DNA of 64,000 nt from an uncultured Bacilli bacterium (lineage in GTDB: Bacteria > Bacillota_I > Bacilli_A > RF39 > UBA660). Position numbers and translations under genes: made by a program. Of this stretch, positions 6,808 to 38,636 are shown piece by piece. Each line of letters opens with the position of its first letter. The first letter of the stretch is position 1. The notes below the pieces were generated by a model. The model worked only from the letters and a program-made list of their open reading frames with translations, made no database searches and was not told the DNA's origin. The DNA is taken from NCBI GenBank assembly GCA_947630055.1, contig CANRGA010000001.1, positions 10,195 to 74,194 of the forward strand, read 5' to 3'.

Positions 6808-6823
6808 GAAGAAGGGATATTAG

Positions 6824-7231: not shown

Positions 7232-7242
7232 GAGGAATAAAA

Positions 7243-8010: not shown

Positions 8011-8033
8011 AAAGGGAAAGGACGGGGCTTTAA

Positions 8034-9125: not shown

Positions 9126-9143
9126 AAAGGGAGGTGCATAATT

Positions 9144-10837: not shown

Positions 10838-10861
10838 AATTCCTTTATAGGAATTTTTTAT
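10838..10861 (+). terminator. rho-independent terminator after tadC-like gene
   Basis: AATTCCTTTATAGGAATT hairpin followed by TTTTT. Confidence 0.6.
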
Positions 10862-10930
10862 ATTATTGCGTAAATTTATATAAAATTTTTAAAAATATTT
10901 ATTTTATTTGTCAAATATTATAAATATTAA

Positions 10931-10959
10931 TTGCTATTTTGTATTATTTTGGTTATAAT
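10931..10959 (+). promoter_or_regulatory. sigma-A type promoter for the pilin genes (TTGCTA-17-TATAAT, TG-extended)
   Basis: TTGCTA 10931..10936, 17-nt spacer, TGGTTATAAT 10950..10959. 30 nt upstream of strong RBS AAAGGAGGAA. Confidence 0.55.
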
Positions 10960-10990
10960 ATTTATAGATAATAAAGGAGGAATGTAATTT

Positions 10991-11269
10991 ATGAAAGAAG
11001 CAACAGGTGAATTAAATATGACAGTTGTAACAGTTGTAGCAATTGCAGCATTAGTAGCTTTCTTTTATTTAGTAATATGGCCAACTATTAAAACAGGTAT
11101 GGCATTAAACTCTGCTTGTAGTACATATGCATCAACTGGTGGTACAGTTACTTTAGATGATGGTGGTACTATTGTATGTACAAAGAAAACTGCAACAACA
11201 ACGGCAACATGTACTTACAATCCATCTGCAACCGAAGGTGGAAAACCACAAACTAAAAACTGTGAATAA
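10991..11269 (+). CDS. Flp-like pilin with atypical class III leader (MKEATG/ELN...), Cys-containing C-terminus
   Basis: Short charged leader KEATG followed by 25-aa hydrophobic helix. 4 Cys in C-terminal half. Strong RBS. Confidence 0.5.
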   Translation: MKEATGELNMTVVTVVAIAALVAFFYLVIWPTIKTGMALNSACSTYASTGGTVTLDDGGTIVCTKKTATTTATCTYNPSATEGGKPQTKNCE

Positions 11270-11285
11270 TAGTGAGTAGTAATAT

Positions 11286-11552
11286 ATGAAAGAGACAACA
11301 GGTGAATTAAACGCTACTGTAGCAGTTATGTTAGCTATTGGTGTTTTAATAGCTTTTTTTTACTATACTTTGTGGCCACTTATTAAAAATAATTTCGATA
11401 AAAATTCTCAATGTAGTAAAGCTATATGTGAAAAATGCGATTTAAATGGTGATGGAAAAGCAGATGTTGGATGCGAAACAGTAACTTGTTATCCAAAAGG
11501 TGAAGAACATCAACCTGGTGTAAATGACTTTCAATGTGTCTATAAAGGTTAA
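11286..11552 (+). CDS. Flp-like pilin paralog (MKETTG/ELN...), 6 Cys
   Basis: Same leader and helix as 10991. C-terminus CSKAICEKCDLNGDGKADVGCETVTC. Confidence 0.5.
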   Translation: MKETTGELNATVAVMLAIGVLIAFFYYTLWPLIKNNFDKNSQCSKAICEKCDLNGDGKADVGCETVTCYPKGEEHQPGVNDFQCVYKG

Positions 11553-11566
11553 GGAAGTGGAATAAA

Positions 11567-12079
11567 ATGCGGGAAGCAATTGGAGGAATATCCATATTTC
11601 AAATAGTTATATTTTTTATATTGTTATTTACAGGGGTTATGTGCTTAACTATTAATCACTCTAAAGCTTTTGGCGTTAAAGATGAAATAATAACAATAAT
11701 AGAAAATGAACCATTAGGAAGTACTTCTACTTCTTCTTTTGGTTTGAGTGAAAGTACAATGGATAAAATTGCTGAGCATTTAAAAGATGCTGGATATAGA
11801 ATTACTGGTAATTGTCCGAATGGATATCAAGGATATAATCGGGAAGGAAATCCCACTAATAATGATGCATCATTTTGTATAAAAGCTAATAAGGTAGAAG
11901 ATAAATTTTATAAAGATGCTAGAGAAAAATGTACTGGCAATAAATGTGTTGTTACAACTGGTGATTTTCCAAATATGGTATACTACGATATAGTATTATT
12001 TTTCCAATTAGACATTCCATTTGTTAAAGATTTATTTGAATTTAATGTAATGGGTTCTACTAAGACTATATTTGGATAG
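11567..12079 (+). CDS. TadE-like minor pilin/pseudopilin (MREAIGG/ISIF...)
   Basis: Leader REAIGG then hydrophobic helix. 170 aa. Operon context. Confidence 0.45.
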   Translation: MREAIGGISIFQIVIFFILLFTGVMCLTINHSKAFGVKDEIITIIENEPLGSTSTSSFGLSESTMDKIAEHLKDAGYRITGNCPNGYQGYNREGNPTNNDASFCIKANKVEDKFYKDAREKCTGNKCVVTTGDFPNMVYYDIVLFFQLDIPFVKDLFEFNVMGSTKTIFG

Positions 12080-12089
12080 GTGATATAAA

Positions 12090-12551
12090 ATGCGCGAATC
12101 AATAGGAACTCAAACAATTTTTAAAGCTGTCTTGATTTTCACTTTTTTATTTTCTGGCTTTATTGCAGTTGCAATAACATATAATAAAGCCTTTAAATTA
12201 AAAAATGAGACTATTAATATTTTAGAAAAATATGAAGGCGTTAATAAACAATCTTTAACTATCATTAATAACTATTTGAATCAAAATGGTTATTCTACTA
12301 AAAATCCTTGTGATACCACTGAATATGGAGTAGCAGATTTAAAAAATCCAACATATGAAAAAAGTAATCCTAATAGTAGGTATTATTATTGTCTTTCTTC
12401 TGAGGTAAAAAATAATCAAATATTTTATGGTATTAAATTATTTTCAAGATTTAATTTACCTATAATTGGAGATTTATTCTATTTTAGAGTTACTGGAGAG
12501 ACAAAAGGTATTAAATTATATGATAATAAACAAAGATTAGAAAATAATTAG
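12090..12551 (+). CDS. TadE-like minor pilin/pseudopilin paralog (MRESIG/TQTIF...)
   Basis: Same leader class. 153 aa. Confidence 0.45.
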   Translation: MRESIGTQTIFKAVLIFTFLFSGFIAVAITYNKAFKLKNETINILEKYEGVNKQSLTIINNYLNQNGYSTKNPCDTTEYGVADLKNPTYEKSNPNSRYYYCLSSEVKNNQIFYGIKLFSRFNLPIIGDLFYFRVTGETKGIKLYDNKQRLENN

Positions 12552-12557
12552 GGAGAT

Positions 12558-13544
12558 GTGAATATGAATGTAATAGTATCAAATAAATATCAATCATTAC
12601 TAGGAACACTAGAAATAGATGTAATTAAAACAATTAATGGTGAATTTACGGTTCAAGATTTGGTAAATCAATTTAATAATTTTTTCTTTAATAAAATGAT
12701 AATTGATATAACTGCTATTAAAAATTATGAAAATATTAATATAATGCGGGAATTATCATTGAATTTTGAAATGGATAAAATAATTATCTTGTTAGATGAT
12801 TCACCAAGTGTAAATTCAGCAAATTATTTATCTCAATTGGTATCTTTTGGTATTTATAATTTTACAAGAAGTGTAGATGCTATTCCATTTTTAATAGATA
12901 ATCCAAATTCTTATAAAGATGTAGCGGCATATCAAAATTTAAATCCAGATACTAATTTGGACAGTAAAAAAGTTAAAGAAATTGCTCCTGTTAAAATGGA
13001 GCAAAGAGTAATTGGCTTTAAGAATGTTACTGAACATGCAGGAGCTACTACTTTAATATATATGTTAAAAAAGCATTTACAAAGTGAATATAAAGTTAAA
13101 GCAATTGAAGTAAATGCAACCGATTTTGAAAATTTTAATGATAAATCACTTGAAAGTGCTGATTTTATGAATATTTCAATAAAATTAGCAAATAATAGTG
13201 ATGCCGATGTTATTTTAGTGGATTTAAATGATGGTCCAGAAACAATTTGTACCGAAATTATTTATCTAATTGAACCAGGTATTTTAAAATTAAATAAATT
13301 AATTAGGAATGATCGAAAAATATTTGAAAAATTAAAGAATAAAAAAATCGTTTTAAATAGAAGTGTTTTAAACGATAAAGATGTTCATGATTTTGAATAT
13401 GAAAGTGGTAGTAAAATATTCTTTAATATTCCAAGTTTAGATGAAAAATTAGATAATAATAAAAAAATAATTGAATTTTTAATTGCTTTAGGATTTTCTA
13501 GATTAGATGTAGAAAATAATAATAAAAAATTTGGTATTTTATAA
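12558..13544 (+). CDS. TadZ/CpaE-like protein (receiver-like N-domain plus degenerate ParA/MinD-like domain)
   Basis: Deviant P-loop region VIGFKNVTEHAGATTLIYMLKK. N-terminal alpha/beta region. Last gene of operon. Confidence 0.35.
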   Translation: MNMNVIVSNKYQSLLGTLEIDVIKTINGEFTVQDLVNQFNNFFFNKMIIDITAIKNYENINIMRELSLNFEMDKIIILLDDSPSVNSANYLSQLVSFGIYNFTRSVDAIPFLIDNPNSYKDVAAYQNLNPDTNLDSKKVKEIAPVKMEQRVIGFKNVTEHAGATTLIYMLKKHLQSEYKVKAIEVNATDFENFNDKSLESADFMNISIKLANNSDADVILVDLNDGPETICTEIIYLIEPGILKLNKLIRNDRKIFEKLKNKKIVLNRSVLNDKDVHDFEYESGSKIFFNIPSLDEKLDNNKKIIEFLIALGFSRLDVENNNKKFGIL

Positions 13545-13620: not shown

Positions 13621-13800
13621 GAATTAAGGTGGTCTCATTATTTAAAATTAATAAAGATAGATAATGAAATTAAAAGAAGACAAAAATTTCATTAAAGATC
13701 CATATGTATTAGAATTTTTAGATATAAAAGAAAAATACTGGATAATTTTGCTATATTGTGGTATTATATGAAACAATTGATTTTGAAGGGGTGTTTTGTT

Positions 13801-22336: not shown

Positions 22337-22365
22337 TTGACATAATATATTTAATTAGATAAAAT
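22337..22365 (+). promoter_or_regulatory. sigma-A promoter TTGACA-17-TAAAAT
   Basis: TTGACA 22337..22342, 17-nt spacer, TAAAAT 22360..22365. Upstream of RBS AGGAAAGAAGG. Confidence 0.55.
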
Positions 22366-22397
22366 TTAATTAAGTAAAGGAAAGAAGGTATATATTT

Positions 22398-22763
22398 ATG
22401 TTATTAGGAGCTACATTTTGTACTGATACTGCAAATATATGGCATTTAGTTGGTATGGTAGTTTATATTTTAAAAATTGTTATTCCACTTGTATTAATCA
22501 TTTTAGGTATGCTTGATTTAGGGAAAGCTGTTGTTTCAAGTGATGAAAAAGCTATTAATAAAGCAGTTGGTACATTAATAAAAAGATTTATTGCAGCAGT
22601 TGTAGTATTCTTTGTTCCTACTATAATTAATGGAATTTTTGGAGTAATTGGTGTAATTGGTGGAAGTTCAAAAGATGATTACCAAGTATGCGTTAGATGT
22701 GTTACTCAAACTTGTGAAGCAGAAGCAGAAGCAGCAAGACAAAGCATCGGCTTTACTCAATAA
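22398..22763 (+). CDS. VirB2/TrbC-like two-TM protein, minimal member of a four-paralog family
   Basis: LVLIILGMLDLGKAVVSSDEKAINKAVGTLIKRFIAAVVVFFVP shared with the C-termini of 22873, 24153 and 25714. Ends with CVRCVTQTCEAEAEAARQ. Confidence 0.45.
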   Translation: MLLGATFCTDTANIWHLVGMVVYILKIVIPLVLIILGMLDLGKAVVSSDEKAINKAVGTLIKRFIAAVVVFFVPTIINGIFGVIGVIGGSSKDDYQVCVRCVTQTCEAEAEAARQSIGFTQ

Positions 22764-22788
22764 TTTTTAGTAATTAATGTGTATAGAA

Positions 22789-22826
22789 AATAGTGTCAAC
22801 AAAGTTAACACTATTTTTTTGTTTTA
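22789..22826 (+). terminator. rho-independent terminator
   Basis: AATAGTGT..ACACTATT hairpin followed by TTTTTGTTTT. Confidence 0.6.
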
Positions 22827-22847
22827 ATTTAATATTTACAATAACCA

Positions 22848-22856
22848 TGTTATAAT
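22848..22856 (+). promoter_or_regulatory. TG-extended -10 (TGTTATAAT) in a block duplicated at 24128..24136
   Basis: ATAACCATGTTATAATTTAG versus ATAACCATGATATAATTTAG. Confidence 0.45.
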
Positions 22857-22872
22857 TTAGGTGGGTGAGTCT

Positions 22873-23970
22873 ATGAAAAAAAATAAAGCAATAGCTATAT
22901 TTTGTTTGTTATTTATGATTTTAATAGTTTTTGCAATATGCTCATCTGTATATTTAAGTAAAAGAGAAAATAATAAAGATATAATCATTTTAGCAGCAAA
23001 TAAAAATTATGGTTTAACTAAGGAACAAGTAGAACAAGAATTAAATAAAATGAAATCTACTCCAACTTATGATGAATTAGTATCATTAGCTAAAAGAAAA
23101 TATGGAATGAGTGAAGATGTTTTTCAAGTGGTTTTTGGTTGGGCAATTGGTGAAGGCTATGATAGTCATGATCATTATCTAGGTTACTTATGCGATAATG
23201 TTGGAATTAATCATTATATGGGGTATGGAAAAACTACTGCTAGTTCCTTAGCTGCATCAATAGCCGGAAGAGATAGTAGTGGCTATTATTCAACAAGTAG
23301 GATGCAAGGAAGATCTATTTCTGCTAAAAATAATCCTGGAAGCTATGTAGCAGCTTATAAAGGAATGTATTTAGCTTTGAAATATCCTGAAGAGAATGCA
23401 CATGATTGTGATGGTGTATCAAACTATAGTGGATATGGAGGTCAAAAAATTTATTCAGCAGTAGTTGGAAGATATACAATAAATGTATGGTCTGTTTGGT
23501 ATGATGGCATAAAGCATTGGAACTCTGATGGTAAATATTCTGATAGTAAAGGTGGAATAAAAGGTGCCAAAAAAGAAGAAGTGCTTGTAACATTAAAAGA
23601 CAAAGATCCACGTATAGATTATGCTGATTTATGTAAATCAAAAGGTTTTAGAATGGGTTCTAAAATAGCAGGTATAGTTATATTGGTAGTAAAATGGTTA
23701 ACGCCAATGATATTAATAATACTTGGGATGACAGATTTTACTAAAGCAATGGTTTCAAATGAACAAGATTCATTAGGAAAGGCGACAAAAACATTTATAA
23801 TAAGAATGATGATTGCAATAATGCTACCATTTATTCCAGGACTTATGTATTATTTAGTTGATTATTTTATTGGCGATTTAAAGGATGAAGCCGGGGAACT
23901 TGTATCATGTACTGAATGTCTTAAAGATCCTTTTAGTTGTGTAGTTGAATTGTATGACAATAATAATTAA
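22873..23970 (+). CDS. secreted protein with large variable ectodomain fused to the conserved VirB2/TrbC-like two-TM C-terminal module
   Basis: ATG 22873 after AGGTGGGTGAG. Signal MKKNKAIAIFCLLFMILIVFA. C-terminal LTPMILIILGMTDFTKAMVSNEQDSLGKATKTFIIRMMIAIMLPFIPGLMYYLVDYFIGD...CTECLKDPFSC. Confidence 0.55.
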   Translation: MKKNKAIAIFCLLFMILIVFAICSSVYLSKRENNKDIIILAANKNYGLTKEQVEQELNKMKSTPTYDELVSLAKRKYGMSEDVFQVVFGWAIGEGYDSHDHYLGYLCDNVGINHYMGYGKTTASSLAASIAGRDSSGYYSTSRMQGRSISAKNNPGSYVAAYKGMYLALKYPEENAHDCDGVSNYSGYGGQKIYSAVVGRYTINVWSVWYDGIKHWNSDGKYSDSKGGIKGAKKEEVLVTLKDKDPRIDYADLCKSKGFRMGSKIAGIVILVVKWLTPMILIILGMTDFTKAMVSNEQDSLGKATKTFIIRMMIAIMLPFIPGLMYYLVDYFIGDLKDEAGELVSCTECLKDPFSCVVELYDNNN

Positions 23971-23989
23971 AAAAGTTTGAGGTGATAAA

Positions 23990-24070
23990 ATGGAAAAAAA
24001 TAAAGCGATAGCTATATTTTGTTTATTATTTATTATATTAACTATTTTTGCAACAATTTCTATTATATAA
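23990..24070 (+). pseudogene. 26-codon remnant duplicating the signal-peptide start of 22873 (MEKNKAIAIFCLLFIILTIFATISII)
   Basis: Near-identical to first 20 codons of 22873, own RBS GAGGTG, then stop. Confidence 0.45.
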
Positions 24071-24127
24071 TAAGTGTTAAATGCCTTTACAGTTTTATTT
24101 AATTTGTTTTATTATTTAAAATAACCA

Positions 24128-24136
24128 TGATATAAT
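24128..24136 (+). promoter_or_regulatory. duplicated TG-extended -10 (TGATATAAT)
   Basis: Second copy of the promoter block. 16 nt upstream of RBS TAGGTG. Confidence 0.45.
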
Positions 24137-24152
24137 TTAGTTAGGTGTTAAT

Positions 24153-24875
24153 ATGAAAAAAAATTGGAAATTATTAGTATTTTGTTTGATTATTATGTTT
24201 TTTATTAATTGTAATATTGCTATTGCGGATTCATCTTGTGATAAATATGCCACACATAATGAAGAAATATGTAATTATGAATCATCAACTTCAGGAGAAG
24301 CAGTATGTAGATGTCTTTATGATTTGAATAAAACTAATGAAACTACTTGTGATAGAGGCTATACAAATAATGTATTAAACATATGTGAGGCTTCATTTCC
24401 AACAACATATGATTTTTCAAAAACGCCGGTAGAAAATAATCCATCTAATACAAATAATACTGAGAGCGATGATACTATTAAAGGATCTAGTGATAGTGCT
24501 GGAAATCCTACAATAGGCGATAGTGGTCCAAGATTGGAATATAATAATTTATGTGAATCAGAAGGATTTAAAACAGGATCTAAAATAGCAGGTATAGTTA
24601 TATTGGTAGCAAAATGGTTAACACCACTTGCATTAATGATATTAGGAATGATAGATTTTTTCAAGGCAGTTATATCGAGTAATGAAAAAGCACTAAGTGA
24701 CGCTACGACTACTTTTATAAAAAGAATAGTAATAGCAATTATTGTTCCATTTGTACCTGGTTTGTTATTTTATTTAGTTGATTTTTTTATCGGTGACGAA
24801 ATTGCAGATACTAAAGTTGAATTTGGCTCATGTACGGAATGCTTAAAGGATCCTTTAAATTGTACAATTAAATAA
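24153..24875 (+). CDS. secreted Cys-rich variable ectodomain fused to VirB2/TrbC-like two-TM module (paralog)
   Basis: Signal MKKNWKLLVFCLIIMFFINCNIAIA. C-terminal LTPLALMILGMIDFFKAVISSNEKALSDATTTFIKRIVIAIIVPFVPGLLFYLVDFFIGD...CTECLKDPLNC. Confidence 0.55.
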   Translation: MKKNWKLLVFCLIIMFFINCNIAIADSSCDKYATHNEEICNYESSTSGEAVCRCLYDLNKTNETTCDRGYTNNVLNICEASFPTTYDFSKTPVENNPSNTNNTESDDTIKGSSDSAGNPTIGDSGPRLEYNNLCESEGFKTGSKIAGIVILVAKWLTPLALMILGMIDFFKAVISSNEKALSDATTTFIKRIVIAIIVPFVPGLLFYLVDFFIGDEIADTKVEFGSCTECLKDPLNCTIK

Positions 24876-24890
24876 TAATAGAGTTGTTTA

Positions 24891-25619
24891 ATGAAAAATT
24901 TTTTACTTAATAGTAATGAAAAATATATTATAAAATTATTTGGTTTTTGGCACATATTTTTAATGCTATTTATATTATGTGTAGTTTATTTTATTGTAAA
25001 AAATAAGAGTAAATTAATTAATTTGAATAGTAAAAAAAAGAAAAAAATAAGAATAGTATTTACGATTATTTTGATTTTGAATTTGTTTATAAGAAGAGGA
25101 GCATTTTTAATTTACAATGTATATGATTTCCACTTTCATTTAGATATAAATATTTGTAATTTTTTAAATATTATTTATATTATATATGGTTTAACGGGAA
25201 ATTCAAAAATATATCCTATTTGTTTTTATTTGAGTTTTGTTGGACCTTTTATAGCTATTCTATTTCCCTGTATTAATTTTAGTGTTTTAAATTATTCATT
25301 TTATTCATTTTTAATTACTCATCATTTTGTTTTTATTTTTAATTTCATTTTTCTTTGTTTTGAAAATTACAAATATATTAGCAAAGATTTTAAAAACATA
25401 TTTCTATTTTTAACAATCTATTTTTTTATTGTTTATTGTTTTAATTATATTTTTAATACTTCATATTTATTACCATTTGAATTTGTCAACAATGATTTAT
25501 TAACAAATGGATTTATTAATTATATATATCATTCTAGAATATTAATTTATTTCATATATTTTTCATTTATTTTTAGTTTATTATTTTTAAGTAGATCAAT
25601 TTTAAAAAAAATAAATTAA
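24891..25619 (+). CDS. polytopic membrane protein of unknown function (very hydrophobic, F/I/L/N-rich)
   Basis: 242-aa ORF in 25 percent GC DNA, multiple predicted TM helices. Weak RBS. Could be a TcpD-like accessory. Confidence 0.35.
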   Translation: MKNFLLNSNEKYIIKLFGFWHIFLMLFILCVVYFIVKNKSKLINLNSKKKKKIRIVFTIILILNLFIRRGAFLIYNVYDFHFHLDINICNFLNIIYIIYGLTGNSKIYPICFYLSFVGPFIAILFPCINFSVLNYSFYSFLITHHFVFIFNFIFLCFENYKYISKDFKNIFLFLTIYFFIVYCFNYIFNTSYLLPFEFVNNDLLTNGFINYIYHSRILIYFIYFSFIFSLLFLSRSILKKIN

Positions 25620-25713
25620 TAATATATAAATTATGTAATAAAAATTAGTAGTATTTTCAAAAAATATATGCTAAAATAAAAATATAAATAATAAAGATGT
25701 TAGGAAGATTTCT

Positions 25714-26574
25714 ATGAAAAAAACAGTTAAGTTTATATTTTTATTTGTTTTAATTTATATATTTCCTTTTGTTGTTGTAAATGCAGGCGGAAAAAGTGAT
25801 GATAGTATTAATAATAATGCTAATGTTTCAAGTAATGAACCAGCAAAACCTTTAACATGTGTATATGGCCCCTCAGGAAAAACATATTATAGATTAATTC
25901 AAACAGCAGATGGACAAATAAATTTACAAATGTCGCATGTTGATAATATTAATTATACAGATATGTCTTCACAAAATTGGGGTGGAGATAGAACAACTGC
26001 AAGTAGCCAAACAATTTTAAAGAAAACTAAAAATTTTGAACAAACTTCAAAATATGTTAATGGTCATTTAACAGGATGTCCAGAATATTTACTTGATTAT
26101 GGTTGTGATAAACATCCTGTTAAGTGTGTTAATGTGTATTTTACTGATGAAAAAGAAGGAAATGATAGAGCAAATTCATATGATTTGATTTCGTATTTGC
26201 CAAAAGTTTTTGAAACTGAGAGTGTTCCAAACTATTTTAATGATCCAAGTTCTTCATATGAAGGATTAGAACCAATAACTGAATGTACTGCATTGTTAGG
26301 TGATCCTGGTACAGATGGAACTCCAGCATTTTATTTAGTAAAAGCTTTTCATGTGATAAAATATGTTGCGTTAGTATTATTAATTGTCTTATCAGTTATA
26401 GATTTTACAAGTGCGACAGCAAAACAAGATAAAGATGCAATGGCAAAATTGTTAAAAAAAATTATGATGAGATTCATTTTATGTATAATAATATTCTTAT
26501 TGCCATATTTAGTTAAATTATTGTTAAAATATTTGGTTTCTAGGCAAACTGATTTATGCAAAGGCAATTGGTAA
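25714..26574 (+). CDS. secreted variable ectodomain fused to VirB2/TrbC-like two-TM module (divergent paralog)
   Basis: Signal MKKTVKFIFLFVLIYIFPFVVVNA. C-terminal LVLLIVLSVIDFTSATAKQDKDAMAKLLKKIMMRFILCIIIFLLPYL. Confidence 0.5.
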   Translation: MKKTVKFIFLFVLIYIFPFVVVNAGGKSDDSINNNANVSSNEPAKPLTCVYGPSGKTYYRLIQTADGQINLQMSHVDNINYTDMSSQNWGGDRTTASSQTILKKTKNFEQTSKYVNGHLTGCPEYLLDYGCDKHPVKCVNVYFTDEKEGNDRANSYDLISYLPKVFETESVPNYFNDPSSSYEGLEPITECTALLGDPGTDGTPAFYLVKAFHVIKYVALVLLIVLSVIDFTSATAKQDKDAMAKLLKKIMMRFILCIIIFLLPYLVKLLLKYLVSRQTDLCKGNW

Positions 26575-28884: not shown

Positions 28885-29205
28885 GTGAATAATTATTTAA
28901 TACCAGCAAATACAAAGAAATCACAATTAATGTTAGGTTTTTTTACCCCATTGGATTTAGCTATATTTGCAATTGGTTGCTTATGGACACTTATTATGGT
29001 ACTTTTGATAAAAAGTATTAATATGCTTGTTTTAATTCTAATATTATTACCAGCATTAATATCGGCGTTTTTGGTAATGCCAGTACCTCATTATCATAAT
29101 GTATTGCAATTACTAACAAATATTTTCAACTTTTATACAAACAGAAGACGATATTATTGGAAAGGATGGAGTATGTATGAAGAATTCGGAACAAGCGATA
29201 AGTAA
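28885..29205 (+). CDS. VirB3-like small two-TM T4SS protein
   Basis: 106 aa, two hydrophobic helices. Immediately precedes the VirB4 modules. Confidence 0.4.
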   Translation: MNNYLIPANTKKSQLMLGFFTPLDLAIFAIGCLWTLIMVLLIKSINMLVLILILLPALISAFLVMPVPHYHNVLQLLTNIFNFYTNRRRYYWKGWSMYEEFGTSDK

Positions 29206-29740
29206 TCCTAAATTTACAAGCACTTGGTTGCCAATTAGGCAAATAATGAATGGAATGATTCAACTTGATGACGGTACTTATGTAACAGGAGTTAAAATAC
29301 ACCCTAAAAATATATTTATTATGGGTTCACAAGCGCAAGATAATATGATTTATAGTTTACGAAATTTCTATAATACAATAGATTATGAATTCTGGCTTAT
29401 TATTGCGGATCGTCCAGTTGATATTAATTTATATTTAGCAGAATTACAAAAGTTATATAATAATTCTTCTAGTAATGAAGTAAGAAAATTGATTTTGCAA
29501 GATATTAATAAAGCTAATCAATTTATGAGTATTGAATATAATGTTGTTGATACTGAATATTATTTAATATTCCAAGAGAAAAAATTAGAAATTTTACAAA
29601 AAAAATTACATAATATGATAAGTGGACTTGCAAATTGTGGATTACAATCAAGTCAAACAAGTAATGCTGACTTAAGAATTATTTTAGATAATCTTCTTAA
29701 TGGCGGCGAAGCAATTAATTTTGGGACGGTGATGAGCTAA
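29177..29740 (+). CDS. soluble N-terminal module of a split VirB4-family protein (separate ORF coupled by TAATG)
   Basis: 187 aa with no TM. Stop TAA overlaps the ATG of 29740 (GCTAATGAGT). 187 + 595 aa equals the size of Gram-positive VirB4 (TcpF/ConE). Confidence 0.35.
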   Translation: MKNSEQAISNPKFTSTWLPIRQIMNGMIQLDDGTYVTGVKIHPKNIFIMGSQAQDNMIYSLRNFYNTIDYEFWLIIADRPVDINLYLAELQKLYNNSSSNEVRKLILQDINKANQFMSIEYNVVDTEYYLIFQEKKLEILQKKLHNMISGLANCGLQSSQTSNADLRIILDNLLNGGEAINFGTVMS

Positions 29741-31527
29741 TGAGTAATGTAAAAAATGCTATAGCACCAAAAGGTATGGAATTTAAACCTACCGAATTTA
29801 GAATTAGTGGTAAATATTCTACTATTATTACTATTGTAACTTTTCCCAAAAATGTTTATGTAGGTTATTTATCAGATATAACTAATATTTCGGGAGTTAA
29901 AGTTGTTGTTAAACATATTCCAATTCAATTCCAAGTATTGCAAAAAATGATTAATAAGGAAATTGCAGATTTAAAGACAAGATATCAATCAGAGCATGAT
30001 CAAACATTACAAGAAAAAATTCGTCAAGATTATGAATCATTAGAGCAATTTATTAGTATGCTTGCTTCAACTGATGCTAGAATATTCGATTTTCAAATGC
30101 ATTTAATGCTTACTGCTGATAGTAAAGAAGAACTTGATAATAAAAGAATGGAAGTTAAAAGTTATTTAAATGCAATGGGTATGGCAGGCGTAGCTTTAAT
30201 GTTTGAACAAGAAAAAGTACTTAAAAGTATTGTGCCAATATTTCCACCTCAAGATATTGAGCAAAGAATTGGTACACCAATACCTTCAATTACTATTGCT
30301 GCTATGTATCCTTTTGTTTTTGATAGTATCAAAGATCCAGGATTATCATGTTTATTTGGCGTAGATTTCTCTGGTGGTGTTGTATTATTTAATCAATTCT
30401 TGTATCAAATAAGAAAAGAAAATAATCGTAATAATGCTAATATTATTTTACTTGGTACATCAGGAAGTGGTAAATCAACGGCTGCTAAACTTTTGCTTCG
30501 AACTCATTTACGTAATGGTTGCAAAGTTGTGGCAATCGATCCTGAAGGCGAACTAGGTGATATGACTGAACTTATGGGTGGAGATTTCTTAGACCTTGGT
30601 AAAGGTGGCCAATTTGGTATGATTAATCCACTTGAAATAGTAATGGATGTTGATGAAGAAGAAATATCTCAAGGCTTAGGATATACTGTTTTAACAAGAA
30701 CTCTTCAACAATTAAAAGCATTTATGAAGTATTATAATCCATCAATTGAAGAAGATGTTTTAACTCTTTTTAGTGAAGTAGTTCAAGATACGTATAAGAG
30801 ATTTAAAATTGATTTTGATACTGATTTTACTAAATTAACAAGAGATGATTATCCAACATTTGATGATGTTTATGCTACTATTCAAGGAAGACTTTTATCT
30901 ATGGTAGATGCAACTCATGAGCGAGATGTTATGGAAAGATTAGAATTAAAGGTACGACCTTTAGTCAAAGAATTAAGATATTACTTTACTGGTAAAACTA
31001 CCATTCAAATTCAAAGTGATTTTATTGTATTTAATATAAAAGAATTAATGAATAGTGATGAAAATATTAAAAATGCTTTATTCTTTAACATATTAAAATT
31101 TGCTTGGGGCTTATGTTTAGAGAAAGATGTTAATACAGTTATGATGGTGGATGAAGCTCATGTACTTCTTGCCACTCATAATGAACTTGGAGCAGAATTT
31201 TTAGCTCAAATTCAAAGACGTAGTCGTAAATATAATACTGGTACGATAATAATTACCCAACAACCAACTGATTTCGCAGCTCCATCTGTTATTCAACATG
31301 GTAAGGCTATTTTTGATAATGCTTCTTATTATCTAGTAATGGGCCTTCGTAAACAAGCGGTTGAAGATTTAGCTCAATTAATTGATTTAAATGAAAGTGA
31401 AAAAGAAGGAATAAAATATTATCCACAAGGCCAAGGATTATTTATCTGTGGTAATAGAAGAATGCGTATTAATGTTGTTGTTACTCAAGAAGAACTAGAT
31501 TCATTTGGTTCTGGTGGTGGCTATTAA
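29740..31527 (+). CDS. VirB4/TcpF/ConE-family T4SS ATPase (C-terminal ATPase module)
   Basis: Walker A ILLGTSGSGKST. Walker B MMVDEAHVLL. IIITQQP motif. Confidence 0.8.
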   Translation: MSNVKNAIAPKGMEFKPTEFRISGKYSTIITIVTFPKNVYVGYLSDITNISGVKVVVKHIPIQFQVLQKMINKEIADLKTRYQSEHDQTLQEKIRQDYESLEQFISMLASTDARIFDFQMHLMLTADSKEELDNKRMEVKSYLNAMGMAGVALMFEQEKVLKSIVPIFPPQDIEQRIGTPIPSITIAAMYPFVFDSIKDPGLSCLFGVDFSGGVVLFNQFLYQIRKENNRNNANIILLGTSGSGKSTAAKLLLRTHLRNGCKVVAIDPEGELGDMTELMGGDFLDLGKGGQFGMINPLEIVMDVDEEEISQGLGYTVLTRTLQQLKAFMKYYNPSIEEDVLTLFSEVVQDTYKRFKIDFDTDFTKLTRDDYPTFDDVYATIQGRLLSMVDATHERDVMERLELKVRPLVKELRYYFTGKTTIQIQSDFIVFNIKELMNSDENIKNALFFNILKFAWGLCLEKDVNTVMMVDEAHVLLATHNELGAEFLAQIQRRSRKYNTGTIIITQQPTDFAAPSVIQHGKAIFDNASYYLVMGLRKQAVEDLAQLIDLNESEKEGIKYYPQGQGLFICGNRRMRINVVVTQEELDSFGSGGGY

Positions 31528-31651: not shown

Positions 31652-34504
31652 ATGGATCCAAATGAAGAATTTGAAGAATTAGAAGATTTAGATGTAAATC
31701 CTGATGCCACTGAAGAAATTATAGATGATGGGGGAGAAGAAACTTTTAGTGATTATCCTGAATCTACTGGAAGTAAAACCGGATACAAAGGAAAAAAATA
31801 TCATGCTGATCGTATAAATGAATTAGATGAAAAAAGCGAACAGTTAAAAGAAAAAGTAGAAACTTTAAAAGATGAAAAAAGTAGAGATTGGAAATTAAAA
31901 GATTCTAATAATAAAGAACCAGTTAAAGCTGATGGTTCTAATACAAGATTAAAAACTCAAAGAGAAAAATTTGGTGATAATGCTAAACTTGCTAGAGCAA
32001 AAGCTCAGGAAAAAATAAATAAAGCTCAAAGAATGAAAGCAAAATTAGATAGAGTTACTGATGTTGCAACTCATCCATTAGAAGCTGCCAAAGAAGCTGC
32101 TGAAGATAAAGCTAAAGATATAGCTAAAAAAACAGGAAAAACAGTTGGAAAAGCAGCCGCTAAAGGTGCAGTTAATGCTGCTAAAGCTACGGGAAGATTA
32201 GTTGCTCAAGGTGGAAAAATGCTTGTTAGTTTATTATCTAATCCTTATGTTTTAGCTGCAGTTGTAGCGGCAGCTTTATTATTTATTATTTTCTTTATGC
32301 TATTTTCTAAAGCATCAGATGGTGACTTAGAACCAGAAGGATATTTTGATACTACATGTGATTTCAATTTAACTTCTGTAACCTATAGCTGTAATGGTAC
32401 TAGTAAAATAATGGGAATAAAAGAATATGTTTTAAGTATTGCTTATGGTGAAATGCAAAAAAATAATTTATCAGAAGCAGCAATTAAAGCATTAATGATA
32501 ATTGCAAAAACAAATGCTCTTGCTAATGGCAACTATGATAGTAGTGGTGATAAGGCTATTAGTATAAGTGGAAGTAATTGTAATGCTGCATATGAAAATG
32601 TTTATGAGACACTAGCTGATGAACAAGAAAATAAGACAAAACAAAAGCAAGTTAAAGTATTAGAAAACTATTATAATGAAATAGCTAATTATTTATTTAT
32701 TTCTGAATCATATAAGAGTGAAATCACTGAATTAGGAAGTGAAGATGCTTTAGAATTTAATGATAATATTATTCAAAAATTAGTTTCAACTAATAAAGAT
32801 GGCTATGAAGAAATACTTCAAGAAATATATGCAGTTGAAGATGGTGAAAGTGATAAAACTATAACAGTAACTAATTCAAATCCATCTATATTTGTAGGTG
32901 ATTCTAGAACAGTTGGTATGAAAAATTCTGTTAGTGAATTAAATGATAATAATACCATTGCAGAAGGTTCAAAAAGATATGATTGGTTTGTTAATACTGC
33001 AATAAATAGCATTAATAGTAAAATAAATAATGGCAATTCTTATAATATTATTAGTTGGATGGGAGTAAATGATATTGCAACTAATGCAAGTAGTGTAGCT
33101 GAAAAATATTTTAATAAGTATAAAGAACTTGCACAAGGTAGTTGGAGTAAACATACTATATATGTTGTAAAGGTAGGCCCAGTTGTTGATTCTAAAACAT
33201 ATTATGTTGATAATGCTCAAGTAAATGAATTTAATGATAGAATGAAAGAATTAATAAATAATGCCAACATTAGTAATTTAAAATATATTGATTTAAGTTA
33301 TTCTATTAATTCATATGATGCTGAGGGATTACATTATGGTCAAAGCGATTATCAAAAAATTTATAATGATATAAAAGCAAAAGTTACTTCAACAAAGACA
33401 CTAAGTAAAGTTAAAGCATTATTTAATAATGCTGAATATTGTACATACTATAGATATAAAAAAGAATGTGAAGCAGGTTGGTGGTGGCCAATTGGTACAG
33501 GTACTCCTCGAGGAAATATTTATCCAGATGAACCAGGCTCATCTTTAATGCAATTATATTCACCATTTTCTTATAGTCGTGATATTGGTAAAGGCGCAAG
33601 AGCACATTTGGGCGTTGATATTGGTGGTGGATTTGATGATATAGTTATTGCATCTAGGTCTGGAACTGTTGTTGCCACTCATAATGGCTGTACTGAATTA
33701 AATAATTTACATAGTACTTGTGGTGGCGGTGGAGGCAACTGGGTTAAAATTGATCATGGCGATGGCACATATTCTATATATATGCATATGAAAAATAATT
33801 CTTTAACAGTGAAAGAAGGAGATAGTGTTAATCAAGGTCAAAAAATAGGTTTAATAAGTTCCACAGGTTCATCAACTGGTGCCCATCTGCATTTTGCTAT
33901 TATAGTGGATGGTAATTATGTTAATGCTCTTGATGGTTATATTAGTGCTGATAATCCACGACCATCTGGTAATTGTGATAATTATACAGCTGATAAATCA
34001 GGTGTATGCAAAGCTTTGAAAGATTTGGGATTTAGTGATAACGCAGTGGCAGGCTTAATGGTTAATATTAAGGCTGAAACTTGGTATTTTGATTTTGATC
34101 CTAATGCCTATGTTGCAAATGATAATGGTGGTCCAAGTATGGGACTTATAATGTGGCATGATGTATTTGCTTGTGCTAATTATGATGTCTGTAGTGCTAA
34201 AAATTCAGGATATACTTGTAATGCAAGTGCTTTAAAATGCTTTTGCCAAGAAAATAATTTGGAATGGAATAGTGTTGCCTGTCAAACTAAATATTTAAAA
34301 AAATATATTGATGATCATGCAAATGTTTATGATTTCGATGCTGCAAAAACAATTTATGATCCTAATGCAAGTGCTCATGATATAGCATCACAATTTTGTA
34401 TAAAATTGGAAAGACCCGCAAATAAATATACAAATTGTCCTCAAAGAGCAAGCAGTTATGCGAGTGATATGTTAAGCTTTGTTAAAAATGGTTGTAAAGA
34501 TTAG
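31652..34504 (+). CDS. multidomain cell-wall hydrolase of the T4SS (VirB1-functional analogue): TM anchor, GDSL/SGNH hydrolase, M23 peptidase, lysozyme-like C-terminal region
   Basis: TM VLAAVVAAALLFIIFFMLF. GDS motif FVGDSRTVGM and GVNDI. M23 motifs HLGVDIGGG and GAHLHFAII. Confidence 0.75.
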   Translation: MDPNEEFEELEDLDVNPDATEEIIDDGGEETFSDYPESTGSKTGYKGKKYHADRINELDEKSEQLKEKVETLKDEKSRDWKLKDSNNKEPVKADGSNTRLKTQREKFGDNAKLARAKAQEKINKAQRMKAKLDRVTDVATHPLEAAKEAAEDKAKDIAKKTGKTVGKAAAKGAVNAAKATGRLVAQGGKMLVSLLSNPYVLAAVVAAALLFIIFFMLFSKASDGDLEPEGYFDTTCDFNLTSVTYSCNGTSKIMGIKEYVLSIAYGEMQKNNLSEAAIKALMIIAKTNALANGNYDSSGDKAISISGSNCNAAYENVYETLADEQENKTKQKQVKVLENYYNEIANYLFISESYKSEITELGSEDALEFNDNIIQKLVSTNKDGYEEILQEIYAVEDGESDKTITVTNSNPSIFVGDSRTVGMKNSVSELNDNNTIAEGSKRYDWFVNTAINSINSKINNGNSYNIISWMGVNDIATNASSVAEKYFNKYKELAQGSWSKHTIYVVKVGPVVDSKTYYVDNAQVNEFNDRMKELINNANISNLKYIDLSYSINSYDAEGLHYGQSDYQKIYNDIKAKVTSTKTLSKVKALFNNAEYCTYYRYKKECEAGWWWPIGTGTPRGNIYPDEPGSSLMQLYSPFSYSRDIGKGARAHLGVDIGGGFDDIVIASRSGTVVATHNGCTELNNLHSTCGGGGGNWVKIDHGDGTYSIYMHMKNNSLTVKEGDSVNQGQKIGLISSTGSSTGAHLHFAIIVDGNYVNALDGYISADNPRPSGNCDNYTADKSGVCKALKDLGFSDNAVAGLMVNIKAETWYFDFDPNAYVANDNGGPSMGLIMWHDVFACANYDVCSAKNSGYTCNASALKCFCQENNLEWNSVACQTKYLKKYIDDHANVYDFDAAKTIYDPNASAHDIASQFCIKLERPANKYTNCPQRASSYASDMLSFVKNGCKD

Positions 34505-36416: not shown

Positions 36417-38636
36417 ATGAAGTTTAAGGTAGAAGCTAAAGACTTTTTCTTATTTGTAGTATATTGTATTATACTTCTTTATTTATGTGCTTTAGCAGTT
36501 TCTAATTTATTTTGCCTACTTAATTATGGTACATTTTATGGACTTCTTCCTTTAAGTGCTTTCTCTTTGCAATATTTACCATTTACTTTAGGATTATTCA
36601 TTGGGGCCTTAATTTTAATATTTACTAGTGTCTCTTCTTATATTTTTAATAAAGATAAAGGTAGTGGCTTTGGTATTAAAGTTAATAAAGAAAAAACTAG
36701 TGATGGTTATGCTAGATGGGCTAAAGATAAGGAGATAAAAACAGCTAATAAAGTTGTTAAAATTAATCCAACTGATAAAGTACTTACAGCTGGTGGAATT
36801 CCTTTAATTAGTAATCCAAAAGAAATATGGGTTGATAATAGTGATTATCATAATTTGGTAATAGGTTCTACTGGTAGTGGTAAAACTGAAAATTTAGTAT
36901 TTCCAATGGTAAATATCTTAGCTAAAAAAGGTGAAAGTATGATTATTACTGATCCTAAAGGTGAGATATATAGTAAAACTGCTAATAACTTAAAAGAACG
37001 TGGATATAAAATTATTGTTTTAAATTTTAGGGAACCAGGAAAAGGTAATGCTTGGAATCCTTTGGATATGCCTTATAAGTATTATAAGGAAGGTAATTAT
37101 GATAAAGCCACTGAACTTCTAGAAGATGTTTCTTTAAATATATTATACGATCCATCTAAAGGAAATGGTGATTCTGAATTCTGGGAAAAAGGATCAGCTG
37201 ATTACTTTTCAGGGTTAGCTATTGGATTATTCCAAGATGCATCGGAAAAAGAAATAAATTTAAATAGTATTAATTATATGAGTACTGTTGGTGAAGAAAG
37301 ATATGCTACTAGTAACTTTATAAAAGAATATTTTAATTTAAAAGGTAAAGAATCAAATGCTTATATGTTTGCTAATACAGTTATTAATGCTCCAAACGAT
37401 ACAAAGGGTGGTTTACTTTCAACATTTAGTCAAAAAATAAGAATGTTTTCTACTAAAGAAAATTTAGCGGAAATGCTTTCTTATAGTGACTTTGATATGC
37501 GTGACATTGGTAAAGGTAAAACTGCTGTATTTATGATTATTCATGATGAGAAAAAGACATATCATACATTGATGACTATTTTTATAAAACAAGTATATGA
37601 AACTCTTATTGATGTAGCGCAAGCTAATGGAGGAAAACTTCAATATCGTACTAATTTTATTTTAGATGAATTTGCTAATATGCCACCTCTTAAAGATGTT
37701 GATAGTATGGTATCAGCAGCAAGAAGTCGTGATATAAGATTTACTTTTATTATTCAAAACTTTGCTCAACTTAATGATGTATATGGTGAAGAAGTAGCAC
37801 AAGTAATTAGAGGTAATTGTGGTAATTTAATTTATTTAATTTCAACAGAACTTAAAGCCTTAGAAGAAATAAGTAAAATGTGTGGTGAAGTTAAATCAAA
37901 AGAAAAGGATAAAACTGCTTCAACTCCATTAGTTACAGTTAGTGATTTACAAAAATTAAAATTAGGTGAAGCAATTATTTTAAGACTTAGAATGAATCCA
38001 TTTAAAACAAAATATGCTCCTAATTTTAAAATAAATTGGGGAGAAGATTATCCACTAGCGACATATCCTACTAGGGAATTTCATCAAGTTGAATTATTTG
38101 ATTTAAAAAAATATGTTACAGAAGAAAAAAGAAAACGTATGATGAATAATACAAATAATGATGCTAATTCAATGATGCAACCAGGTGGAATAAGTCCATT
38201 TGGTATGGGTGGTGGCTTTGGTATGCCAGGTATGCCAGCTGGTAATCCAATGAATTCTTTAAATGGTTCAGCATCAAATCCTTTTGCTGGTGGCTTACAA
38301 AATATGGATATCGATGCTATGATGAAAGATATCGATCGTAAACTTAAAGAACTTGACGAAGAAGAAAAACGTCAAAAAGAAAAATTAAAGATGCAAAATC
38401 AAAAAATTACTAATGATTCACCATTTAAATTATCAGATGATACAGAATTGCCAGAATTAAAAGAAAAAGCATTAAATGAAGAACTTGATAAGGACATAAA
38501 AGAAAAAGAAGAGCCTAAAGATGAAAGTTCAAAAATAGATAAACCAAAAGTTAATATTGATGTTGATAGTGTTATTATGAATGAAAATGTAATAACTGAT
38601 GATGAATTTTTTGACGATTTCTTTGGTGATGAATAA
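36417..38636 (+). CDS. VirD4/TraG/TcpA-family type IV coupling protein
   Basis: N-terminal TMs. Walker A LVIGSTGSGKTE. Walker B FILDEFANM. Gly/Met/Pro-rich then acidic C-terminal tail. Confidence 0.8.
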   Translation: MKFKVEAKDFFLFVVYCIILLYLCALAVSNLFCLLNYGTFYGLLPLSAFSLQYLPFTLGLFIGALILIFTSVSSYIFNKDKGSGFGIKVNKEKTSDGYARWAKDKEIKTANKVVKINPTDKVLTAGGIPLISNPKEIWVDNSDYHNLVIGSTGSGKTENLVFPMVNILAKKGESMIITDPKGEIYSKTANNLKERGYKIIVLNFREPGKGNAWNPLDMPYKYYKEGNYDKATELLEDVSLNILYDPSKGNGDSEFWEKGSADYFSGLAIGLFQDASEKEINLNSINYMSTVGEERYATSNFIKEYFNLKGKESNAYMFANTVINAPNDTKGGLLSTFSQKIRMFSTKENLAEMLSYSDFDMRDIGKGKTAVFMIIHDEKKTYHTLMTIFIKQVYETLIDVAQANGGKLQYRTNFILDEFANMPPLKDVDSMVSAARSRDIRFTFIIQNFAQLNDVYGEEVAQVIRGNCGNLIYLISTELKALEEISKMCGEVKSKEKDKTASTPLVTVSDLQKLKLGEAIILRLRMNPFKTKYAPNFKINWGEDYPLATYPTREFHQVELFDLKKYVTEEKRKRMMNNTNNDANSMMQPGGISPFGMGGGFGMPGMPAGNPMNSLNGSASNPFAGGLQNMDIDAMMKDIDRKLKELDEEEKRQKEKLKMQNQKITNDSPFKLSDDTELPELKEKALNEELDKDIKEKEEPKDESSKIDKPKVNIDVDSVIMNENVITDDEFFDDFFGDE

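Follow-up and report, generated by a model that had tools for sequence, protein, structure and literature searches.

Four closely spaced genes in a 64,000-nucleotide stretch of DNA from an uncultured Bacilli bacterium (contig CANRGA010000001.1; the whole stretch is called the window) encode paralogous proteins that share a small membrane hairpin and head a type IV secretion system (T4SS) of the Gram-positive type. The genes are named here by their start positions, 22398, 22873, 24153 and 25714 (Table 1). We favour, with a probability of about one half, the reading that this array encodes VirB2-like paralogues of the Pfam family PF18895 (T4SS_pilin), one of them a major pilin and several of them modular minor pilins that would display extracellular domains. 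The analysis shows the paralogy of the proteins, their topology elements, their family membership, the synteny of the locus, its cassette structure and the SleB-like fold of one ectodomain. The host belongs to a lineage of uncultured gut Bacilli known from metagenome-assembled genomes (MAGs); the window has a G+C content of about 26% throughout and is chromosomal, with BipA, TyrRS, NusG, methionine gamma-lyase and tRNA-Glu genes downstream.

The shared membrane hairpin and its family

The four open reading frames (ORFs) described in the first-pass annotation were all found, and their claimed paralogy was borne out. When compared by BLASTP with 24153, the 22873 protein gave E=1e-53 (44% identity over 210 aa), 22398 gave E=1e-17 and 25714 gave E=1e-6, and the hidden Markov model (HMM) of the family scored 120.1, 111.3, 120.6 and 53.0 bits for 22398, 22873, 24153 and 25714, respectively. 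The whole 121-aa protein and the C-terminal parts of the other three aligned as one module. The module consensus quoted in the annotation was close for 22873 and 24153, loose for 22398, and fitted 25714 only as a divergent subtype; SCTECLKDP(F/L)xC was the C-terminal end of 22873 and 24153, the two proteins for which a CTECLKDP ending had been noted.

By hydropathy, two transmembrane (TM) helices were predicted in 22398, and an N-terminal hydrophobic segment plus two C-terminal TM helices in each of 22873, 24153 and 25714, in agreement with the signal peptide and unrelated secreted domain earlier assigned to these three. The 22398 protein, which has no signal peptide, carries one Cys before TM1 and a CxxC..C motif after TM2; its AlphaFold2 (AF2) model has helices at residues 12-47 and 50-87, with a mean predicted local distance difference test score (pLDDT) of 72.6. 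In 22873, a signal or anchor segment (residues 1-30) is followed by a SleB-like ectodomain (~45-215) and by the type-1 module (247-365), which ends in SCTECLKDPFSC. The ectodomains had been sized at 150-250 aa, which does not hold for 24153 (only ~100 aa), but the Cys-rich character given to this protein stands, with Cys at positions 29, 40, 52, 54, 66, 78, 134, 227, 230 and 237; it had no Pfam, NCBIfam or PHROG match. The module of 25714, called type 2, has one Cys on each side, so that its C-terminal flank has a single one.

The loop between the TM helices of the module is rich in K, R, D and E. Across 150 sequences, the three Cys of the motif after TM2 were invariant and the one before TM1 nearly so; because conserved Cys stand on both flanks, the two flanks would share an oxidising side, where they are probably cross-linked by disulfides. 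In one related locus (L084, 9427-10342), a thioredoxin/PedC-like gene divergently adjoins the PF18895 pilin gene that heads the T4SS, and this neighbour fits a need of the Cys motif for disulfides. When the 157 closest family representatives were sorted by extensions of at least 60 aa, 53 were bare, 82 had an N-terminal extension, 20 a C-terminal one and 2 had both, so that about two thirds carry a large N- or C-terminal extracellular domain. As the N-terminal ectodomains stand behind signal peptides and the module can be extended at one end or the other, both termini of the hairpin would lie on the outer side and the charged loop in the cytoplasm; tolerance of fusions at either end is what such a hairpin would predict.

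PF18895 was the only meaningful Pfam match of 22398 (E=2.3e-4, 21.6 bits, with the cutoff of this profile, its gathering score, at 26.6 bits). The consensus of 94 bare homologues gave 34.4 bits (E=2.3e-8) over positions 3-71 of the 71 in the profile, and its next-best matches were TM noise at no more than 20 bits. The profile matched 30 of 150 family members at E<1e-3, with a best E of 1.1e-7, and was present as a precomputed label on 9 of 97 database homologues. Judged by these profile scores, the module belongs to PF18895 at the family level. T4SS_CagC was touched by one of the 150 members (E=0.001), and the PrgI/TcpE-like similarity expected for the module was located instead in the separate VirB3-like ORF at 28885. 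The type-2 consensus matched NF045889 (27.0 bits, E=2.8e-6) and NF045848 (26.7 bits, E=3e-6), in both cases only at profile positions 52-117, the TM hairpin; the scores stayed far under the curated cutoffs of 70 and 90 bits because the hairpin alone matches. With NF045849 (Mbov_0395 'pilin-like'), the type-2 consensus gave E=6.5e-4, and the 25714 protein itself gave E=0.018 and 0.097 with NF045889 and NF045848.

To estimate the extent of the family, 1.84 billion representatives at 50% identity were searched with an eight-module profile. The 9,865 proteins that reached E<=1e-3, with 5,406 still matching at E<=1e-10, indicate a very large family, in which the homologues listed with source names bore only the name 'hypothetical protein'. 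A megablast search of the region against 72,556 plasmids gave no match, nor did tblastn searches of the family consensus against the same 72,556 plasmid records and 50,697 phage records; therefore, the family is off catalogued plasmids and phages at that sensitivity.

Synteny and ectodomain exchange

Related loci were collected by scanning GTDB species genomes with a four-sequence alignment, which gave 220 loci, of which 80 were kept; the synteny counts refer to 82 loci, the window and 81 related loci from gut Bacilli MAGs. Nearly all titles were of uncultured Bacilli, 'Tenericutes' or 'Mycoplasma sp.' MAGs, with a few of Muribaculaceae, Erysipelotrichaceae and Bacillota, and the sources, where titles show one, were animal or human gut (rabbit, Hadza human, goat rectum, chicken).

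The array was found to head a Gram-positive, MPF-FATA-like (mating-pair formation class FATA) T4SS, as first annotated, with genes for VirB6-like, VirB3-like and VirB4 proteins, a peptidoglycan hydrolase and a coupling protein downstream. In the relatives, a Tad-like operon, the pilin-like array and the T4SS are contiguous and form one conserved supercluster. Its order is a 1274-aa secreted protein, DUF5411, a CpaB-like protein, a T2SSE-family ATPase and two polytopic proteins, then prepilin-like, TadE-like and ParA/TadZ-like ORFs and the pilin-like array, and then VirB6, VirB3, the VirB4 N-domain (VirB4N), VirB4, the hydrolase, unassigned ORFs and the coupling protein. The array stands directly upstream of VirB6-VirB3-VirB4 in the window and 32 loci, and likewise in L084 and L086; in L084, pilin and T4SS are so arranged without a Tad-like block. 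Fused members made up 52 of 94 modules in T4SS-linked loci versus 0 of 51 in T4SS-free loci, the latter being those in which 6 kb or more of downstream sequence is free of a T4SS. Orthologues of the type-2 gene 25714 numbered 33 in 30 loci, either bare (131-153 aa) or fused (211-607 aa), and all 33 end immediately 5' of VirB6 or, where VirB6 sits elsewhere, of VirB3.

Regarding the ectodomains, that of 22873 was modelled by AF2 with pLDDT 85-95, and the model resembles in fold the catalytic domain of SleB-like lytic transglycosylases. A Glu residue (E94), invariant in 12 homologues, lies ~15 residues upstream of the segment LCDNVGINHYM and is a candidate equivalent of the SleB catalytic Glu. 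This ectodomain family occurs in both orders, with the module first and the ectodomain last in the homologues P0010, P0011 and P0012, and P0008 has two such ectodomains in tandem. When 150 members were scanned, recognisable extension domains were found in ~14 cases among ~100 fused proteins: Amidase_3, M23, NlpC/P60, M15_4, Peptidase_C39_2, GDSL esterase and alpha/beta-hydrolase. When ten fused proteins of T4SS-linked loci were scanned with Pfam, none of their ectodomains could be assigned; therefore, the term 'cell-wall hydrolase' is not generalisable beyond these ~14 cases and the SleB-like fold.

The ectodomain diversity between strains that had been anticipated was found, as 61 locus ectodomains fell into 42 BLAST sequence clusters, those of 24153 and 25714 being singletons. 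Between the window and the closest relative (L001), identity was 96% for VirB4, 90% for VirB4N and 80% for VirB3, and 69% for the bare pilin, 67% for the SleB-type pilin and 51% for VirB6; the other ectodomains were unalignable. The array of L001 has six genes, two of which share a 300-nt 3' half at 100% identity and have unrelated 5' halves. In the window, the coding start of the signal peptide is present in three copies, one of them a stump. The 5' flank of the cassettes recurs at 24094-24164 as a direct repeat (D3, 80% identity) of 22814-22884, in which the promoter-like site occupies 22829-22856. A second direct repeat (D2) gives the small ORF at 23990-24070 84% DNA identity to 22864-22936, the start of the 22873 gene, and this ORF is probably the stump of a lost cassette. 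From the identity gradient and the flank repeats it follows that the exposed parts turn over fast through recombination at conserved flanks; this pattern shows the ectodomains behaving as swappable cassettes, with recombination between the conserved 5' flanks (promoter, ribosome-binding site and signal peptide) and 3' flanks (the module).

The same pattern could be expected of polymorphic antibacterial effectors, in which variable envelope-degrading enzymes would be mounted on a conserved module for contact-dependent delivery. The 42 clusters on one module family, the fast evolution of the surface parts, the cassette-like architecture with conserved flanks, the orphan copies elsewhere in chromosomes and the recognisable domains, which are of typical antibacterial classes (peptidoglycan amidases and peptidases, lipases and esterases), all point this way. 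However, the cassettes have no immunity-like gene behind them, either in the window or in L001, whose genes abut one another: 22873 is followed only by the signal-peptide remnant, and 24153 by a TMEM164-like gene that is present in only four loci. Moreover, the variable domain is usually N-terminal and covalently held to a two-TM anchor, unlike released toxins, and most ectodomains have no domain assignment. An effector function is thus decidedly improbable, and the delivery of adhesins or toxins suggested in the first-pass annotation fared poorly, as the sole interpretable ectodomain resembles a SleB lytic transglycosylase and immunity-like genes are missing beside the cassettes.

A putative modular pilus and its alternatives

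In the favoured reading, the PF18895 family would be the monoderm counterpart of VirB2, and the bare form, 22398, the major subunit. The 22873 and 24153 proteins would be modular minor pilins, the Sec signal exporting the N-terminal ectodomain and the C-terminal hairpin staying in the membrane. The 25714 protein belongs to the T4SS-specific subtype and would work nearest the channel, whether as initiator, tip or base subunit. By analogy with VirB2 pili, a short pilus or conduit would grow as VirB6 draws hairpins out of the membrane and stacks them. This would leave the ectodomains outside the conduit, where a lytic enzyme could open the peptidoglycan of the donor cell, the partner cell or both. 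Solved structures of VirB2 pili place the loop along the lumen and the two termini at the outer surface (bioRxiv 10.64898/2025.12.18.695078); since the termini lie outside, an N- or C-terminal graft would be sterically possible, through sparse or terminal incorporation. Polymerisation, disulfides, enzymatic activity and the major, minor and tip roles are inferred.

Several known systems bear on this proposal. PF18895 is the profile with which VirB2-like pilins are called in Patescibacteria, where arrays of 2-11 divergent copies lie near virB4 (PMC12102498; PMC12857230). The likeness extends to the same Pfam family at the consensus level, tandem divergent paralogues beside MPF-FATA-like VirB4/VirB6/VirB3 genes in a monoderm, and a system near which no canonical relaxase family was detected either there or here. 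In contrast, the pilins there are small, whereas the present ones come from gut Bacilli, carry large extracellular domains and are coupled to a Tad-like operon.

PrgF of pCF10 is an essential VirB2-like protein (bioRxiv 10.64898/2025.12.18.695078) and, like the module, forms a small hairpin of two TM helices and a charged loop, its gene lying just before a VirB6-like gene; polymerisation of PrgF on a VirB6 pentamer has been proposed, and multiple candidates per locus are common. Unlike the module, PrgF had no PF18895 match. When aligned by hhalign with the bare-homologue consensus, it gave P=0.0098 and a probability of 4%, with the end of TM1, the loop and TM2 all in register (PrgG control, P=0.58); this similarity between profiles is marginal and suggestive only. 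The survey behind PrgF would miss fused forms because only proteins of 50-150 aa were considered.

A third parallel is offered by the integrative and conjugative element (ICE) of Mycoplasma agalactiae, ICEA, where CDS15 and CDS16, upstream of the VirB4 gene CDS17, are essential for transfer (PMC6030558). The proteins Mbov_0395 (pilin-like, ~80 aa) and Mbov_0396/MMCAP2_0566 (~306-322 aa), which adjoin the VirB4 gene Mbov_0397, would correspond to CDS15 and CDS16 if the order of locus tags is followed. The VirB4 family of these elements, NF045975, is the closest to the window VirB4, and the order of a pilin-like gene, a hairpin with an extra domain and VirB4 is the same; however, the hairpin is N-terminal there and C-terminal here, and the present hosts are walled.

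Modular subunits are established among type IV pilins, as in PilB of Streptococcus sanguinis (PMC8179133). There too a polymerising module is grafted to a displayed domain, in minor subunits beside a bare major pilin, although that class is non-homologous, with a single N-terminal helix, a prepilin peptidase and another assembly machine. Tandem amplification and diversification of pilus subunits, read as surface variation, is also known from the multicopy variable VirB2/VirB5 of the Bartonella Trw and Rickettsiales T4SSs (PMC12857230, PMC12102498), but these are small, unfused Gram-negative pilins in which the pilin itself varies and not a grafted domain. Pilin arrays, VirB2-like proteins in monoderms and modular type IV pilins are already known separately, and the earlier description of the array as a non-standard component needs qualifying, given the PF18895 arrays of Patescibacteria, the reported VirB2-like PrgF and the match of the mycoplasma ICE hairpin with type 2. 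No description of enzyme-bearing VirB2-type pilins, of VirB2-type or PF18895 pilins with large extracellular domains, or of the PF18895 family in Firmicutes, was found in the literature covered by a limited search.

A number of observations weigh against the pilus reading. Taken by itself, 22398 is under the Pfam cutoff (21.6 versus 26.6 bits), and the type-2 consensus is not significant against PF18895 (E=0.32, 11.5 bits). The TrbC/VirB2 profile PF04956 had no match at E<=1 with the four proteins or three family consensuses, which leaves the module pilin-like through PF18895 but takes away the direct VirB2/TrbC match that had been expected. Against PDB sequences, the module profile met no pilin, only TM noise from rhodopsin and G-protein-coupled receptors, as did the full 22873-family profile, and fold comparison with solved pilins is uninformative for a helical hairpin. 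The name of PF18895 is itself a prediction, and we know of no member that has been shown experimentally to form a pilus. The likeness to SleB is at fold level only, with no Pfam Hydrolase_2, NCBIfam or PDB-sequence match, and hhalign of this ectodomain with a CwlJ sequence was non-significant (P=0.15), only LCDNVGINHYM pairing with LVGNVGINRLR. For most ectodomains of T4SS-linked arrays, no domain is recognisable. A VirB2-type helix would have no room for a 100-500-aa domain on each of its subunits, and incorporation would therefore be only sparse or terminal. Orphan fused genes lie far from any T4SS (L002, L085). Finally, the bare pilin gene is linked most tightly to the Tad-like filament operon, a point missed in the first-pass annotation: the first module gene, of the bare type-1 form, lies at most 400 nt after the Tad-like block in 64 of 68 block-bearing loci, and in 29 loci one or two bare modules are followed by housekeeping genes (uvrA in L054), the 6-10 kb downstream being free of a T4SS.

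This last linkage, the 29 loci with bare modules and no VirB3 or VirB4 nearby, and several MAGs in which the Tad-like block and the bare pilin are on different contigs from the T4SS and the fused pilins would all be expected if the bare module served the Tad-like type IV filament machine and not the T4SS, the array standing between two machines. This is nevertheless improbable, as the module has neither a class III (prepilin) signal nor the single N-terminal helix of type IV/Flp pilins, and the Tad-like block has prepilin-like ORFs of its own. In addition, L084 has a PF18895 pilin beside a T4SS without a Tad-like block, the fused and type-2 members are exclusively T4SS-linked, and the 29 loci cover local sequence, so that a T4SS may lie elsewhere in these genomes.

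The size of the ectodomains (100-500 aa) bears on another alternative, in which the hairpin would be only a membrane anchor or VirB6-docking element that does not polymerise, and the fused proteins tethered VirB1-like helpers. The VirB6-like protein has a weakly pilin-like N-terminal hairpin, suggesting hairpin-hairpin packing in the membrane, and the ~300-aa hairpin proteins of mycoplasma ICEs are annotated simply as transmembrane conjugal transfer proteins. The locus also already has a separate multidomain hydrolase, like other Gram-positive T4SSs. However, docking of this kind leaves the bare 121-aa paralogue, the family-level membership in PF18895, the four strictly conserved extracellular Cys, the charged loop and the extensions at both ends unexplained, and we regard it as unlikely.

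A two-TM hairpin joined to wall-hydrolase domains also recalls, superficially, a holin-endolysin pair, and one type-2 homologue gave E=0.054 with the holin profile TIGR01593. A holin match had been named in advance as the finding that would undo the assignment, and it was looked for: no PHROG match was obtained for the four proteins at E<=0.01, no Pfam holin matched, tblastn found nothing in the 50,697 phage records, and no phage genes are nearby. The linkage to VirB6/VirB3/VirB4 is conserved, and the ectodomains need no holin because they have signal peptides of their own. Lysis or secretion by a holin-like module with endolysin-like domains attached, already disfavoured, is thus essentially excluded.

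Gram-positive T4SSs face the problem of crossing two thick cell walls. Should the hairpin prove to be a genuine pilus subunit, VirB2-type pilins would be able to serve as modular carriers of enzymes and binding domains; this would provide a concrete route to wall penetration and to partner specificity, supply naturally swappable cassettes and extend pilin arrays from Patescibacteria to gut Firmicutes. The array suggests that Gram-positive transfer pili may be able to carry exchangeable tools, and in a family with thousands of 50%-identity representatives, proteins at present named 'hypothetical' could become recognisable by a simple module profile. VirB2-like subunits for Gram-positive T4SSs were proposed only in late 2025 (bioRxiv 10.64898/2025.12.18.695078). 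A wider proposal, which we consider unlikely, is that this lineage of gut Bacilli carries a chromosomal composite apparatus, near which no canonical relaxase family was detected, made of the Tad-like machine, the VirB2-like array and a T4SS of the mycoplasma-ICE type. Its pilus of bare pilin would be decorated or tipped with exchangeable enzymes (lytic transglycosylases, amidases, peptidases, esterases) and would breach the envelopes of other bacteria for exchange of DNA, protein or nutrients. It would be for walled Firmicutes what the essential T4SS with its pilin array is for epibiotic Patescibacteria. If this were true, these would be the first enzyme-bearing VirB2-type pilins.

Features of the array and its neighbourhood

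Table 1. Array genes, interposed elements and linked operons in the window.
Feature	Position	Strand	Evidence and remarks
Tad/Flp-like type IV filament block	7243..13544	+	PF00437 E=2.5e-29; TIGR03177 CpaB E=8e-10; RcpC E=3e-6
Sigma-70-like promoter match, TTGACA-17-TAAAAT	22337..22365	+	11/12 consensus matches; best in the region; 5' of bare pilin gene
Bare type-1 pilin-like protein, 121 aa, module only	22398..22763	+	PF18895 E=2.3e-4
Cassette 5' flank: TTAATA-16-TG-TATAAT promoter-like site, ribosome-binding site, start codon	22814..22884	+	Copy at 24094-24164
Candidate modular pilin 1, 365 aa from ATG	22873..23970	+	GTG at 22861 also open
Remnant 26-codon ORF, MEKNKAIAIFCLLFIILTIFATISII and stop	23990..24070	+	Own ribosome-binding site; copy of the 5' end of the cassette signal peptide; no ectodomain or module behind
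Candidate modular pilin 2, 240 aa	24153..24875	+	Signal peptide ..AIA/DSS; ~100-aa Cys-rich ectodomain; type-1 module ending SCTECLKDPLNC
TMEM164-family polytopic membrane acyltransferase-like protein, no pilin module	24891..25619	+	PF14808 E=5.7e-18; TIGR02206 E=2.4e-11
Type-2 modular pilin-like protein, 286 aa	25714..26574	+	Signal peptide ..VNA/GG; ~170-aa ectodomain; divergent module
VirB6-like polytopic protein, 757 aa	26589..28862	+	NF045890 pLS20_p028 E=6.5e-6
VirB3-like (TcpE/PrgI family) small membrane protein	28885..29205	+	PF12648 E=1.2e-4; PF12666 E=5.7e-4
VirB4 ATPase as two ORFs	29177..31527	+	N-domain 29177-29740; ATPase 29740-31527
Multidomain peptidoglycan hydrolase, 950 aa, VirB1/PrgK analogue	31652..34504	+	Peptidase_M23 8.8e-23; Phage_lysozyme2 1.2e-12; SpoIID 9e-5
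Type IV coupling protein (VirD4/TraG-like)	36417..38636	+	PF02534 4.2e-53; TraG-D_C 7.6e-23

The sigma-70-like site is a consensus match only, in AT-rich DNA that is not enriched in such matches, and a scan for intrinsic terminators over the array found none. A fifth gene, unrelated to the four, interrupts the array in the window and encodes the TMEM164-like acyltransferase. TraX acetylates F-pilin, and by this analogy the acyltransferase might modify pilins or lipids. Homologues occupy the same array position in L005 (7921), L009 (10339) and L011 (10431), and in these four arrays, the window included, the gene lies directly 5' of the type-2 gene or of VirB6.

The weakly pilin-like part of the VirB6-like protein is residues 49-107 (N-terminal hairpin, 26589-26990), with E=0.003 for PF18895 and E=2.2e-4 for NF045849; the C-terminal half is variable and hydrophilic, and homologues carry TrbL_4/TrbL_3. 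The module HMM also detected VirB6 ORFs in L019 (11576) and L024 (7671). The two VirB4 ORFs matched NF045975 (the Mbov_0397 family) with E=3e-15 and 4.2e-106; they encode a TraC-like N-domain of ~187 aa and a 595-aa ATPase, with overlapping stop and start. This split is common to L001, L084, L086 and all T4SS-linked loci, and as it is kept across relatives, it is native and not a frameshift. In the mycoplasma family, the VirB4 homologue is a single 894-aa protein that includes the VirB3-like part.

Two unassigned ORFs lie between the hydrolase and the coupling protein. A VTT/DedA-family membrane protein is encoded after the latter (39006-39599), in a position kept in L029, L067 and L072, and may be part of the system. 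No canonical relaxase was found among the island ORFs scanned with Pfam; mycoplasma ICEs with the same VirB4 type also have no canonical relaxase and still transfer (PMC6030558), and the present system may therefore still be conjugative.

The Tad-like block comprises a CpaB-like protein, a T2SSE-family ATPase, two polytopic proteins, two TadE-like ORFs, a ParA/TadZ-like ORF and two small Cys-rich prepilin-like ORFs that begin MKE(A/T)TGELN. With DUF5411 and a 1274-aa Cys-rich secreted protein preceding it, the operon looks complete (window 2983-13544). Between it and the array, genes for an M26 protease and a YhcG nuclease are inserted in the window. The former encodes a 2472-aa IgA1 protease/ZmpB-like surface protein (13756-21174; PF07580 E=1e-31), whose position is empty in almost all relatives, with a homologue only in L027. 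YhcG/DUF1016 PDDEXK-nuclease genes or fragments occur three times in the window, at 89-1267 (-), 1457-2044 (-) and 21354-22313 (+), and further copies lie where the Tad-like and T4SS blocks part or invert (L018, L020, L022, L056, L062, L068), which suggests that they mark rearrangement breakpoints.

Of the orphan genes, which lie far from Tad-like as well as T4SS genes, that of L002 (5644-6630) encodes a module-first SleB-type protein and adjoins glyS and an SSPI spore protein gene. In L085 (9560-14013), a cluster encoding proteins of 142, 179, 649 and 463 aa lies beside the dcw cluster and a sortase gene. An IS605-family OrfB/TnpB gene (Cas12f-like TNB domain) at 59721-60905 of the window is unrelated to the T4SS island.

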